From a virus (lineage: Duplodnaviria; Heunggongvirae; Uroviricota; Caudoviricetes), in IMG/VR virus record IMGVR_UViG_2531839554_000008: DNA of 14,441 nucleotides, one strand, 5' to 3'. The translations under genes and the position numbers were made by a program. Position 1 is the first letter of the stretch, and each line of letters starts with the position of its first letter. Of the stretch, positions 473 to 11,325 are shown piece after piece. The notes beneath the pieces were generated by a model, which was not told the DNA's origin, searched no databases, and was given only the letters and a program-made list of their open reading frames with translations.

Positions 473-494
473 ATAGATGATAGTTATTTATCAG
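473..494. repeat. candidate attL core (ATAGATGATAGTTATTTATCAG)
   Basis: 20 of 22 positions identical to 11304-11325; identical 11-mer ATGATAGTTAT at 477-487 and 11308-11318; outermost repeat pair bracketing the island. Confidence 0.4.
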
Positions 495-497
495 TTA

Positions 498-640
498 GTG
501 TTCGCGGGTGTTCGCCGTGGTGTATCTGTCTCATTTATTGCTATGATTATAAAGGAAAATTTCGTTTTTCTTGTTCGCCCTTGTTCGTCGCTGTTTGCCC
601 TTGTACGATGCACGGTGTAGTCAATGGTGTAGTTAATTTT
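498..640. repeat. left arm: phased (G/T)TGTTCG repeats plus tandem GGTGTAGT(C/T)AAT pair (candidate integrase/RDF arm-type sites)
   Basis: GTGTTCGC at 498 and 508; TTGTTCG at 571 and 581 (10-bp phasing); ACGGTGTAGTCAATGGTGTAGTTAATTTT at 612-640 matches 11211-11239 at 28 of 29 positions. Confidence 0.55.
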
Positions 641-660
641 GATGACCGGAAATACGAAAC

Positions 661-1899
661 ATGAGCAGGGCAATTCATAGACTTAGCGACACTCTTTTAC
701 GAAAATTAAGCGGATCACCAACCACAAAAAACACCTTTTTTAATGATGGTGGCAACCTTAGCGTAAGGCATTCAACCAATGGCCTGTTAACTTGGTATTT
801 CACTTACAGGGCCGGAACTGGCAGGCAGGTATCACCGGAACGCCTGAGACTGGGCAACTATCCCGATCTGAGCCTGAAAGCAGCCAGAGAAAAAGCGGCA
901 CAGTGTCGCGCCTGGCTGGCTGAGGGGAAAAATCCGCGCTATGAACTTAATCATGCTGTACAGGACGCGTTAGCCCCCGTGACGGTTAAGGAAGCGCTCA
1001 CTTACTGGCTTGAATCGTACGCAAAGGAAAAGCGCACTGACTACGAATCACTGAAAAGCCGGATCAATAAACACATAATTAGCCAGATTGGCGCTATGCC
1101 ACTGGAAAAATGCGAGCTACGGCACTGGTTGGCCTGTTTTGACCAGATGGCAAAGCGAAGCCCAGTATCTGCCGGATTTTTGCTACAGGTATGCAAACAG
1201 GCGCTTAAGTACTGCCGAAAACGACGATACGCAATCAGCAACGTTCTTGATGATATGGTTGTCGGTGATGTGGGAAAAAAAGCAGAAGTGAGCGAGCGCG
1301 TACTAACAAACAAGGAGCTTGGGGAATTACTCCGCGCCCTGGATGACAAAATATTCCCGCCATACTACAGCGCCCTAATTCGCCTCCTGATTGTTTTTGG
1401 ATGCCGTACCACTGAGCTAAGGCGCTCTGAGGTGCAGGAGTGGGATTTTAAAGAAATGCTCTGGACAGTACCGAAGGAGCACAGCAAAACGAAGGTCGCC
1501 ATATTCAGGCCAATACCGGAAAGCATTTTGCCGTTCGTCACGCAACTGGTGGAGCAGAACAGACACACGGGCTTATTGCTTGGTGAACTGAAAGGACAAT
1601 CTTCGGTAGCAGAGTACGGAAGAACAGCGCACAGACGAATTAATCAAGCCCCTTGGACGTTACACGATATCCGGCACACATTTACAACCATGCTGAACGA
1701 TTTAGGCGTGGATCCGCATATTGTCGAGCAGCTTACAGCCCACCAGATGCCAGGGATGCAACGAGTCTATAACCACTCCCGCTATCTTGATGCAAAACGT
1801 GATGCTCTTAATCTATGGGTAGACCGTCTCGAGCTTCTCCAGAACAATGATGAAAAAATCGTTGTTATGACCCCACGAATTTACACCCAAAATTCTTGA
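661..1899 (+). CDS. int: tyrosine site-specific integrase, P4-type
   Basis: 412 aa. N-terminal arm-binding-type region (LSD..LRKL...WYFTYRAGTGRQV...LGNYPDLSLKAAREKA); C-terminal catalytic signature LHDIRHTF ... VYNHSRY (H-x-x-R and Tyr nucleophile). Adjacent to the island end. Confidence 0.93.
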   Translation: MSRAIHRLSDTLLRKLSGSPTTKNTFFNDGGNLSVRHSTNGLLTWYFTYRAGTGRQVSPERLRLGNYPDLSLKAAREKAAQCRAWLAEGKNPRYELNHAVQDALAPVTVKEALTYWLESYAKEKRTDYESLKSRINKHIISQIGAMPLEKCELRHWLACFDQMAKRSPVSAGFLLQVCKQALKYCRKRRYAISNVLDDMVVGDVGKKAEVSERVLTNKELGELLRALDDKIFPPYYSALIRLLIVFGCRTTELRRSEVQEWDFKEMLWTVPKEHSKTKVAIFRPIPESILPFVTQLVEQNRHTGLLLGELKGQSSVAEYGRTAHRRINQAPWTLHDIRHTFTTMLNDLGVDPHIVEQLTAHQMPGMQRVYNHSRYLDAKRDALNLWVDRLELLQNNDEKIVVMTPRIYTQNS

Positions 1900-2308
1900 C
1901 AAATTACGGCTGTTTTTTCTTTAAGAGATTACAGCCGTGAATAAATCGACGAATATCGACAAAGTTCGTTGTGTTTTTATTTGTCAACCATCGAAAAAAT
2001 TGAAATGTCTTCTTCTGAATTCTTATTCTCTGTTTTTTGATCGTTCCCGCAATCGATGGTTTATCTGTTTGTTTTTAATGAGATAATTCAAACGTAATGC
2101 CAAATGACGACATTTTTTGTTGCGTCGCTTAAAAACTCGTGACACGATTTTAAACACTAACGAGCTTCTACGAACCTTAGCGAACAAAGCCTTTAGCAAG
2201 GTTGTGTTTTTAATTTAAGAGGTGAAAAAGAATCTAAGTAATATCCGATCTCATATATCTACAGCTAAGAGAAAAGTTTATATACGTAATTTTTATGTAG
2301 GTTTTTGT

Positions 2309-2518
2309 ATGCGTGAAATAAATGAAGATCGCGTAATCCGTGAGGATGAATGTCGTAAGTTAACTGGAGTGTGTCGCACTACACGCTACGAACTGGAGAA
2401 AAAAGGATGCTTTCCGTCACGTCTTAATCTGGGTGGTCGCTCTGTAGGTTGGCTGCTGTCCGAGGTTATGGAATGGGTTAAAAGCCGGGATCGCATTAAT
2501 TCAGGCAAGGCAGCGTAA
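2309..2518 (+). CDS. alpA: AlpA-family transcriptional regulator / excision activator (small HTH protein)
   Basis: 69 aa MREINEDRVIREDECRKLTGVCRTTRYELEKKGCFPSRLNLGGRSVGWLLSEVMEWV... matches the AlpA pattern (R..TG.s..t.Y......FP......G.sVGW...E...W). In-frame ATG at 2309 chosen over the track GTG at 2222. Lies downstream of int as in P4-like elements and PICIs. Confidence 0.85.
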   Translation: MREINEDRVIREDECRKLTGVCRTTRYELEKKGCFPSRLNLGGRSVGWLLSEVMEWVKSRDRINSGKAA

Positions 2519-2532
2519 AGGGGAGTATATGA

Positions 2533-2565
2533 CACATAAAACAAAGGCGACCGGAGGCGGTCGCC
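2533..2565 (-). terminator. rho-independent terminator, minus strand
   Basis: 8-bp GC-rich stem GGCGACCG/CGGTCGCC (2546-2565) with a 4-nt loop, followed on the minus strand by UUUGUUUUAU (2545-2536). No U-tract on the plus side. Confidence 0.55.
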
Positions 2566-2656
2566 AATGGGAAAACACTAAACATAAGCCCGAACATCAT
2601 AGCGATTTGCTGGCTGGTGGGCAATGTGATCAGTGTGCTGGCTTGCTGGTGGGCTA

Positions 2657-2836
2657 TCAACCTTTTGGCTCGATACCGCGCTGTTGTAATTCTTTGCGGA
2701 TTATTCGCTTTATCCAGGCAGCAAGAGAATCATCGCCGTCCTGTTGTTGTGCTTTTTCCATCTTTTCCCGTAAGTCAGGATCTAAACGGAACTGGAACGG
2801 AGGATTACCACGCCTTTCGTTTTTGTGTGTTGACAC
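2657..2836 (-). CDS. small ribbon-helix-helix-like DNA-binding protein (putative repressor), 59 aa, not in the ORF track
   Basis: Minus-strand ORF GTG(2836)...TGA(2657): (M)STHKNERRGNPPFQFRLDPDLREKMEKAQQQDGDDSLAAWIKRIIRKELQQRGIEPKG. The pattern strand FQFRL, helix PDLREKMEKA, turn, helix AAWIKRIIRKEL fits Arc/CopG-type RHH. GGGGTG lies 8 nt upstream of the GTG; followed by the minus-strand terminator at 2533-2565. Plus-strand ORFs here (2529..2942, 2617..2841) are Cys-rich and implausible. Confidence 0.45.
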   Translation of the reverse strand: MSTHKNERRGNPPFQFRLDPDLREKMEKAQQQDGDDSLAAWIKRIIRKELQQRGIEPKG

Positions 2837-10323: not shown

Positions 10324-10343
10324 CCCGTTGATTCTTCCAGAAT

Positions 10344-10401
10344 CCCCCATTGGGGGAGGCTGGGCGGCCTGCTGTGGGCTTTTCCACCATTGGTGGAAAA
10401 G
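10344..10401. repeat. CCATTGG-centred palindromes (CCCCCATTGGGGG at 10344-10356; CTTTTCCACCATTGGTGGAAAAG at 10379-10401)
   Basis: Perfect inverted-repeat arms (5 bp and 10 bp) around an ATT centre; the second reappears at 11089-11110. Confidence 0.7.
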
Positions 10402-10797
10402 TGGCGCGACTACAGGGCTGGATCATCAATATGGTGACGCAGCAACAGAGTGACCATTAGTCACCTTGTTCTAACTCGCTGTATTCGTTTAATTTCCACC
10501 AACTGCGGAAATTGAGAAACTCACCCGCCAGACCCTGAATAGTGAAAATCGCTATGCAGCTTCATGTGTCCATTTCCCCGAAACAGGAAAACCCGTTTTC
10601 GGGAGAAGGTGCGATCATGTTCGTCATACCTGTTCCGTTGAAACGGAATACCCGATTCCGGCGTAGCTGGTGGACGCACAGCCACATACAACTAACTTTG
10701 CGCGTCAGTATTGCTGACCCGCAAACAACAACCCGGCAACAGAACGTTACCCGATTCAGCCGTTCGATGGCATCACTGGACCCACTTTCCTGATGCG

Positions 10798-10953
10798 TTT
10801 GCGGGTTATTTGGGGGGTGTTTGCGGGTTATTTTGAATGTCTTGCGGGTTACGTTTTGGCTAATATTCAAACATGTCATTTTTTAACGTATTGATATTAA
10901 AGAATAAAAAATACTTAGCACGCGAAGATAACCCGCTAACCCGCATAACCCGC
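10798..10953. repeat. iteron array with inverted arms: 3x TGCGGGTTA (21-22-bp phasing), a 77-bp AT-rich spacer, then 3x TAACCCGC (8-9-bp tandem)
   Basis: TGCGGGTTA at 10800, 10822, 10843; TAACCCGC at 10929, 10937, 10946; AT-rich 10852-10928; followed by GTATATATATAC (10961-10974). Confidence 0.75.
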
Positions 10954-11088
10954 ACTGTTTTGTATATATATACGAAAAATTGCATTCAGGAGGGGGATCG
11001 AAATTCCTGCAATCCATTACTTATGGAACTATCCGCCCCGTCAAATTTTTACACCCGCGAAATTAAAAAAATGCGTTGCGCTGGTGGG

Positions 11089-11110
11089 CTTTTCCACCAT
11101 TGGTGGGAAA
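11089..11110. repeat. second copy of the TTCCACCATTGGTGG palindrome
   Basis: TGGGCTTTTCCACCATTGGTGG is shared between 10375-10396 and 11085-11106. Confidence 0.7.
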
Positions 11111-11170
11111 CATGGCACCACATCCACCAGCTTGATAACGGATAGCCGGAAAACGATAACGATTAAAGCG

Positions 11171-11239
11171 TGTTGATCTTTGTTCGTGGTTGTTCGATAT
11201 TGTTCGTGGAACGGTGTAGTTAATGGTGTAGTTAATTTT
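11171..11239. repeat. right arm: 3 phased TGTTCG repeats plus tandem GGTGTAGTTAAT pair
   Basis: TGTTCG at 11181, 11191, 11201 (10-bp phasing); ACGGTGTAGTTAATGGTGTAGTTAATTTT at 11211-11239 matches 612-640. Confidence 0.55.
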
Positions 11240-11303
11240 ACTGTTTTTGACGAGTTTATTGTTTGTAACGCAATGAAAAATAAAGGCTAATAAGCCAAAT
11301 GCT

Positions 11304-11325
11304 ATAAATGATAGTTATCTATCAT
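11304..11325. repeat. candidate attR core (ATAAATGATAGTTATCTATCAT)
   Basis: Matches 473-494; contains a perfect dyad ATGATAG-TTAT-CTATCAT, as expected for core-type recombinase sites flanking an overlap region. Confidence 0.4.

Follow-up and report, generated by a model that had tools for sequence, protein, structure and literature searches.

A phage-inducible chromosomal island with two cos sites and a fused protease-capsid gene between cspD and clpS of Escherichia coli

The viral record IMGVR_UViG_2531839554_000008 (Caudoviricetes) comprises 14,441 nts, the whole of which is referred to below as the window, and carries an insert of 10,831 bp in the Escherichia coli chromosome, with cspD/yljB to its left and clpS/clpA to its right. 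We identify this insert as a phage-inducible chromosomal island (PICI) of the classical Gram-negative type (EcCI), most probably EcCI18098 or an essentially identical copy, and put the probability of this reading at about nine in ten. A preliminary description, drawn from the letters alone, had placed a helper-dependent satellite-like island at 473–11325, and these limits coincide with the att cores at 473–493 and 11304–11324 that bound the element.

Integration site and gene content

The chromosomal flanks are macB-cspD-yljB on one side of the island and clpS-clpA on the other. Comparison of the window with the empty site of K-12, which holds a single copy of the 21-bp core (ATAGATGATAGTTATCTATCA), defines the attL core as ATAGATGATAGTTATTTATCA (473–493) and the attR core as ATAAATGATAGTTATCTATCA (11304–11324), neither of which has a strand. 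The insertion between cspD and clpS proposed earlier is borne out by this comparison, and the target can be refined. Since the attL core overlaps the final 8 nts, stop codon included, of the 24-codon gene yljB (406–480), integration targets the 3' end of yljB within the cspD-clpS interval, and the gene is left intact by the event. Two variant positions of the core are exchanged between attL and attR, from which it follows that attP reads ATAAATGATAGTTATTTATCA and that strand exchange takes place inside ATGATAGTTAT.

Inside the left end, a block of TTGTTCG-type repeats (572–640, + strand) ends with the doubled motif GGTGTAGTCAATGGTGTAGTTAAT (614–637). It is 78 % identical to a second block near attR (11171–11239, + strand), found by repeat comparison, in which the doubled motif reads GGTGTAGTTAATGGTGTAGTTAAT (11213–11236). 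The left block is presumed to hold arm-type binding sites. Seen from the attP centre, the doubled motif (GGTGTAGTyAATGGTGTAGTTAAT) is found about 90 bp in the upstream and about 143 bp in the downstream direction, a geometry like the 81 and 132 bp of another doubled motif that was reported to be unique to helper-embedded PICIs (PMC10111431). The same motif as at 614–637 and 11213–11236 is listed as the att core of EcCIDi14 (CGGTGTAGTTAATGGTGTAGTTAATT) in Table S1 of PMC6092414; that entry may therefore be an arm-type site and not the crossover core.

Gene families were assigned by profile matches (Pfam, PHROGs and NCBIfam/TIGR models). Every substantial gene of the island lies on the + strand, as do the features described below unless stated otherwise, and the genes listed in the preliminary description are all present, with strong family matches for each. 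The left end carries a tyrosine integrase of 412 amino acids (661–1899; Phage_integrase, E=2.5e-18; Arm-DNA-bind_3, E=1.1e-16), followed by an AlpA-family regulator or excisionase (2309–2518; Phage_AlpA, E=1.2e-15). The replication module is formed by a primase-replicase with D5_N, DUF5906 and Pox_D5 domains (3981–5735; phrog_864, E=8e-169), which scores 104.7 bits against the P4-family primase model TIGR01613 (cutoff 108.7), by a replication origin immediately downstream and by a single-strand DNA-binding protein (ssb, 6278–6700; SSB, E=1.2e-16). The iteron origin suggested earlier is real. Allowing at most one mismatch, the window contains 22 copies of the octamer CTGTCTAC where 5.9 are expected, 22 being reached in 0 of 200 shuffles, and 12 of the 22 copies are concentrated in the 228 bp from 5749 to 5976, downstream of the primase gene. 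The origin itself, which has no strand, is made up of CTGTCTAC/GTAGACAG iterons, which face both ways and surround T-rich stretches.

The smaller early genes comprise an Icd-like protein (2970–3167; NF033153, 62.8 bits, cutoff 25), two overlapping small open reading frames (ORFs) at 3253–3471 and 3464–3691 (phrog_5146/340 and phrog_2196), a DUF4222 protein directly upstream of the primase (3697–3984; E=4.4e-25) and a conserved backbone ORF of 85 amino acids (6024–6281; phrog_1231). At 2529–2942 (+ strand) a 137-aa ORF without any family match overlaps a 59-aa ORF on the − strand (2657–2836) that RefSeq annotates in the uropathogenic strain F11; sibling islands have, at the matching position, a − strand gene of the YlcI/YnfO family. 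No portal, large terminase, tail or lysis family was matched by the island ORFs of at least 40 amino acids, in agreement with what had been stated before. PADLOC recognized no defence genes among the small ORFs, and Rfam no regulatory RNA, such as a C4-type antisense RNA, on the island.

Packaging signals and the late cassette

An 85-nt direct repeat (6728–6812 and 9262–9346, 96 % identical) represents a duplicated cos site of the lambda type. Both copies align with cosQ and cosN of lambda (ACGGGTCC and, further on, ACG, GGGCGGCGACCT and CGCGG in succession) and with the physical ends of the record of phage cdtI, which stops with CCACG and starts with GGGCGGGAGCGT. Aligned to these two phages, cos-1 (6728–6972) comprises a cosQ-like ACGGGTCC, cosN and a cosB-like region with two TTTTCACCTG repeats; its predicted 12-nt cohesive end, GGGCGGGAGCGT (6770–6781), is the same as in cdtI and phi458. 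In cos-2 (9262–9499) the cosQ/cosN copy, with the predicted cohesive end GGGCGGGAGCGG (9304–9315), is followed by a different cosB-like region that extends up to the start of terS. Positions 6770–6972 are 92 % identical to nts 1–204 of cdtI (203 nts, covering cosB and the first 20 nts of the phage terS), while positions 9268–9789, that is cos-2 together with terS, are 77 % identical to phi458. The termination of the cos-1 homology block about 20 nts inside the phage terS points to a past capture from a phage. As cos-1 copies the cos site of a cdtI-type phage, it could be used by the small terminase (TerS) of such a helper, while cos-2 would be the private site of the island and served by the island TerS. 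Two cos sites are also found in the PICI EcCIIHE3034, and two functional ones have been published for EcCICFT073. Directly before each cos copy (6718–6745 and 9251–9276) stands a terminator-like GC-rich hairpin with a T run, and a further terminator-like hairpin follows the cosB of cos-1 (6999–7015); these structures may serve to set the late cassette apart from the replication operon.

The largest gene of the late cassette (7330–9243) encodes a ClpP-like prohead protease, scaffold and major capsid protein in a single polypeptide of 637 amino acids (NF045540, 898.6 bits, cutoff 475). CLP_protease (residues 31–175) and Phage_capsid_4 (residues 335–634) share one ORF, as the preliminary description had it. 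The product is 57 % identical to gp05 of cdtI, the main length difference from the phage protein being a 29-residue Pro/Ala-rich linker, and about 57 % is also the top protein identity among the matches listed from 50,697 phage records. Compared with two siblings, the gene shows 19–20 synonymous and 4–5 non-synonymous differences, with a ratio of non-synonymous to synonymous change (pN/pS) of 0.06–0.08, and the reading frame is intact in every copy examined. Nucleotide identity to the gene among E. coli records is bimodal, with 193 records at 90 % or more, 5 at 80–90 % and 2,050 at 60–80 %. Because pN/pS is low, identity bimodal and the phage matches reach only about 57 %, sequence comparison identifies the capsid fusion as a distinct and selectively maintained satellite lineage and not a decaying copy.

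Such a gene could signify an intermediate between PICIs and capsid-forming PICIs (cf-PICIs), which would make its own, possibly smaller shells, obtain portal, large terminase (TerL), connectors and tails from the helper and package monomers or dimers. The intact ClpP-type protease domain and the full capsid domain speak for this proposal, the strong purifying selection on a discrete lineage fits it, as does the lack, among the matches listed, of any sequenced phage protein above about 57 % amino-acid identity, and precedents for a capsid homologue redirecting head size are SaPIbov5 (Ccm), where this is known, and PmCI172, where it is suspected. Yet when the capsid or the decoration homologue of EcCICFT073 was deleted, transfer and interference were unchanged, and only phage-sized DNA is packaged. 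In addition, since a portal gene is absent, the island capsid protein, at 57 % identity, would have to co-assemble on a foreign portal, and the 29-residue linker is not an obvious size determinant. An intermediate of this kind thus appears unlikely. It is mainly because the EcCICFT073 deletions changed nothing that we also think it rather improbable that this sub-lineage builds satellite heads on a stolen portal, with several cos sites opening several helper types, including cdt- and Stx-converting phages. If true, this would place the element at a stage between classical and capsid-forming PICIs, equipped with a cdtI-type cos-1, a private cos-2 and a phiP27-like fragment (see below). In the classical PICI that we favour, the capsid fusion may act in interference or head remodelling.

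The small terminase gene (9500–9985) encodes a DUF1441 protein of 161 amino acids (phrog_141, E=4e-58), a remote relative of lambda Nu1. The label "Nu1-like" given to it earlier is acceptable, the profiles of lambda Nu1 (phrog_57) and of the DUF1441 proteins (phrog_141) cross-matching reciprocally and weakly (E about 1e-6 to 1e-9). The island TerS shares 68 % identity with that of phi458 and no more than 71 % with that of any phage; a search of the PDB by sequence gave no meaningful match to any chain, be it of RppC or of lambda Nu1.

Cos sites, capsid gene and terS also bear on a second proposal, namely that of a P4-like satellite with a helper of the P2 type. An Icd-like gene is indeed present. 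However, no ORF matches Psu, Delta, Sid or Ash/epsilon in Pfam or PHROGs, the cos sites are of the lambda type with a 12-nt GGGCGG... end and not of the P2/P4 type, and the homologues of the capsid and terS genes belong to lambdoid phages. Hardly any weight can be given to a P4-like element.

Two lesser ORFs flank these genes. The capsid gene is preceded by a 68-aa ORF (7124–7330; phrog_4934, E=2.4e-32), which is annotated on the same strand in a sibling, shows weak similarity (E=0.048) to the ORF at the equivalent position of EcCIIHE3034 and gave no match by tblastn against phages. A lambda W-type head-tail joining protein was considered for this ORF and rejected, the product being not similar to the protein at the W position of cdtI. 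Downstream of terS lies the conserved 93-aa backbone ORF (9988–10323; phrog_1561), in which a T to G change at 10267 relative to F11 turns the TAA stop into GAA and adds 18 codons, moving the end to 10323. In siblings the interval between the capsid fusion and cos-2 holds a tail-gene insert (8473–9173 in L011, accession NZ_CP148328.1, and 11466–12166 in L012), composed of a truncated "phage tail protein" fragment and a "tail assembly protein" gene, which look like captured helper late genes.

Repeat and match searches delimit a variable non-coding segment without strand at the right end (10374–11110), lying between 27-nt direct repeats. The repeats are 710 bp apart and each contains the palindrome TTTTCCACCATTGGTGGAAAA. 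Within the segment an origin-like array is composed of three copies of TTGCGGGTTA at 21–22-nt spacing, about 75 nts of AT-rich DNA and three inverted copies of ATAACCCGC. Pieces of the segment occur in 274 genomes, in one case at the right end of a PICI at the thiM site (L014) that has an unrelated primase. Over 37 nts (11033–11069) the sequence agrees exactly with the cos region annotated in the Stx2e phage phiP27, in otherwise unrelated surroundings; the match takes in 7 of the 10 nts that make up the annotated cos feature, presumably the cohesive end, and 30 nts rightward of it. Either a third cos site, for helpers of the HK97 type, or a scar of recombination may explain this phiP27-like fragment.

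Modularity, mobility and a proposed life cycle

EcCIIHE3034 and an island of strain Combat2C1 share the backbone of the window up to 6809, and the similarity starts again at 9987. The first boundary falls inside the cos-1 repeat, about 30 nts beyond cosN, and between the two boundaries both islands have a capsid gene of the lambda type, together with a gene for decoration, an ORF of 137 amino acids and a Nu1-type TerS. From this swap we infer that the late cassette is exchangeable and matched to the head type of the helper, one backbone thus serving interchangeable cassettes with one swap boundary at cos-1. The late cassette of the window is found, with at least 80 % of the query covered, in 176 of 5,426 complete E. 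coli genomes.

Evidence of mobility is provided by a sibling island carried on a circle of 10,790 bp, entered in RefSeq as plasmid pZ1323HEC0475-3 (NZ_CP148328.1). Its Int, capsid fusion and TerS are 98.5 %, 99.4 % and 99.4 % identical to those of the window at the amino-acid level, and its primase is of another type. The junction of the circle (...GCTATAAATGATAGTTATTTATCATCT...) equals the attP ATAAATGATAGTTATTTATCA predicted from attL and attR of the window, and the predicted 431-nt attP aligns through it at 93.5 %. As the chromosome of the same assembly does not stand beside pZ1323HEC0475-3 among the top-ranked cassette matches listed, the sibling seems to be present there only as a circle. 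In that culture it may have been spontaneously induced, or kept as an episome. The chromosome of this strain carries a cdtI-type terS-terL-portal-capsid module at 99.4 % identity.

These data also bear on whether the island could be a lambdoid prophage in decay, now immobile and stripped of terminase, portal, tail and lysis genes. Its cos sites, terS and capsid gene do have homologues in phages of the cdtI and phi458 types, and the cos-1 homology ending about 20 nts inside a phage terS shows past phage capture. On the other hand, the int-alpA-pri-ori-ssb backbone is of the PICI and not the lambdoid type, both att cores are intact, siblings with other late cassettes keep the compact layout, and the genes are under purifying selection; moreover, one sibling exists as an excised circle, and transfer of EcCI18098, albeit low, was detected. 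With ends intact, a compact design conserved, selection evident and signs of mobility, a defective prophage is very improbable. The contrary view of the preliminary description, that this is a helper-dependent satellite of PICI architecture and not a prophage, is upheld by the five core components, the att repeats and an EcCICFT073-like replication module. Contiguity with portal, terL and tail genes, which would have spoken against it, is not seen, nor do lysis or immunity genes adjoin the element, the island lying between intact chromosomal genes.

For a PICI of this make-up the following life cycle can be proposed. The island is integrated at the 21-bp site at the 3' end of yljB, a step observed here. 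When a lambdoid helper phage is induced or infects, AlpA and Int would excise a 10.8-kb circle; that int and alpA are both needed is suggested by analogy with EcCICFT073, for which this has been published, and a circular form is seen for the sibling. The primase-replicase would then fire the iteron origin just 3' of its own gene, with the help of the island SSB, and generate concatemers, a step deduced from a Pri 92 % identical to that of EcCICFT073 and from the homologous origin. The helper large terminase would cut the concatemers at the lambda-type cos sites, and the DUF1441 TerS encoded directly downstream of cos-2 probably steers it to island DNA. The DNA would enter heads closed by the portal, connectors and tails of the helper, most likely as about four island units per helper-sized head (4 x 10,831 bp, or 43.3 kb). 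Related phages measure 42.8–47.0 kb by record length, which is compatible with four units, and the packaging of multimers has been published for EcCICFT073. A lambdoid phage having both a DUF1441 terminase and a fused capsid gene is the probable helper; this head type also occurs in cdt- and Stx-converting phages.

Outside the island, downstream of clpA, two repeats of the clustered regularly interspaced short palindromic repeat (CRISPR) family CRISPR-DR4 of Rfam (14250–14277 and 14310–14337, 50.1 bits each) stand 60 nts apart, with a degenerate copy at 14367–14397. They look like what remains of the E. coli type I-F array located between clpA and infA.

Identity and relation to known systems

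PICIs are defined by five core components, namely an integrase, a regulator of the AlpA, MerR or Stl type, a primase-replicase, a capsid-morphogenesis gene and a small terminase, together with the absence of other structural or lysis genes; elements with all five ("Type A") are known in E. coli (PMC10085698, the SatelliteFinder paper). The island has an integrase at one end with att repeats, AlpA downstream of int with the genes co-oriented, a primase-replicase with an iteron origin 3' of it, a capsid gene, and TerS with a helper-type cos; it has no other structural or lysis genes, and its 10,831 bp compare with about 10–20 kb for the class. Its gene order is that of EcCICFT073, to which amino-acid identity amounts to 92.5 % for Pri, 77 % for Int (98 % to Int of EcCIIHE3034), 62.5 % for AlpA, 71 % for SSB, 93 % for the 85-aa ORF and 72 % for the 93-aa ORF; the region downstream of pri is homologous to the EcCICFT073 origin, with the same iterons.

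A probable name can also be given to the individual element. The window differs from F11 at only 4 of 14,441 positions (16, 4516, 10267 and 10576), and F11 belongs to sequence type 127 (ST127; PMC9236248). Table S1 of Fillol-Salom et al. 2018 (ISME J; PMC6092414) contains two PICIs at cspD-clpS with the core ATGATAGTTAT, EcCIIHE3034 of 10.5 kb and EcCI18098 of 10.8 kb, the latter from "E. coli ST127 18098" and without accession; according to that paper, TerS is encoded by both. The island agrees with EcCI18098 in size, core, site and host lineage, and element and class are therefore already known. A literature search gave no paper whose text mentions EcCI18098 or EcCIIHE3034, both names being confined to the supplement of PMC6092414. 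The view that the combination of a fused capsid gene with terS might be an under-described configuration must accordingly be abandoned, in the light of the Type A elements of E. coli (PMC10085698) and of the two PICIs at the exact site (PMC6092414), and also because 21 of the 29 Gram-negative PICIs used as references have a capsid gene (PMC10111431). Likewise, the suggested placement among capsid-forming satellites does not hold, the large terminase, portal and head-tail connector genes that define them being absent. The mitomycin C transfer of a marked island that had been proposed as a check has been published once, for EcCI18098: the cat-marked element gave 80, 110, <1 and 10 transductants/ml in four recipients, the value of <1 referring to DH5alpha (PMC6092414). 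The helper was not identified in that study, and EcCICFT073 transfers at 10^3–10^6/ml by comparison.

Several points weigh against the identification or the proposed cycle. Transfer of EcCI18098 at no more than 110/ml implies that its resident prophages are poor helpers or none, and since this element has no accession, the identity is judged from its size, att core, site and sequence type. The final 11 residues of the island TerS align with no phage TerS, and the acidic tail of the phi458 and cdtI proteins is absent; with so divergent and non-acidic a C-terminus, productive binding to the helper large terminase is not assured. The co-occurrence of a cdtI-type module and an island in the strain of pZ1323HEC0475-3 is weak evidence given the background: a search with the cdtI terS-terL-portal region matched 2,086 genomes, the module being present in 38 % of genomes, and none of the best 60 of these 2,086 was an ST127 strain. 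Finally, the division of labour between cos-1 and cos-2, the pairing of island TerS with helper TerL and the packaging of multimers are steps that we infer.

PICIs mobilize virulence and defence genes at high frequency and interfere with temperate phages. For an island that has already been catalogued, the main value of the present analysis is a correct label. What it adds are two flanking cos sites, a sibling circle closed at attP and a distinct capsid lineage, the satellite capsid gene forming a conserved lineage of its own.

Among the known systems, EcCIIHE3034 has the same site and core as the island and the same int-to-ssb backbone, at 89–95 % nucleotide identity, and differs by a late cassette that is swapped exactly from cos-1 to the end of terS (6809–9987 of the window). 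EcCICFT073 resembles the island in gene order, Pri, iteron origin, two cos sites around a capsid-gene module and the 93-aa ORF at the right end. It is located, however, at ycfD-phoQ (PMC6092414), its capsid and decoration homologues are of the lambda E/D type, and instead of a TerS it encodes RppA, which binds the TerS of the helper; its helpers are lambda, phi80 and a resident prophage. The cf-PICIs, for example EcCIEDL933, share the int, alpA and pri front end and encode their own capsid, protease and small terminase, but they add portal, head-tail connectors, HNH and large terminase, which the island does not have, and steal only tails. Lambdoid phages of the cdtI, phi458, mEp460, mEp213 and Stx types have in common with the island the DUF1441 TerS, the NF045540 fusion family and the lambda-like cosN GGGCGGGAGCGT. 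They differ by additional genes, for terL, W, portal, decoration and tail, which stand between terS and the capsid gene and beyond them, and identity to the island proteins is only 57 % for the capsid and reaches 71 % for TerS. The TerS-encoding pathogenicity islands of Staphylococcus aureus (SaPIs) have unrelated proteins, use an Stl repressor and not an AlpA-based switch, and package mostly from pac and not from cos sites. Nevertheless, they employ the same principle, a satellite small terminase that redirects the helper large terminase, and SaPIbov5 in particular combines, like the island, a capsid-protein homologue (Ccm) with the carriage of helper cos sites.

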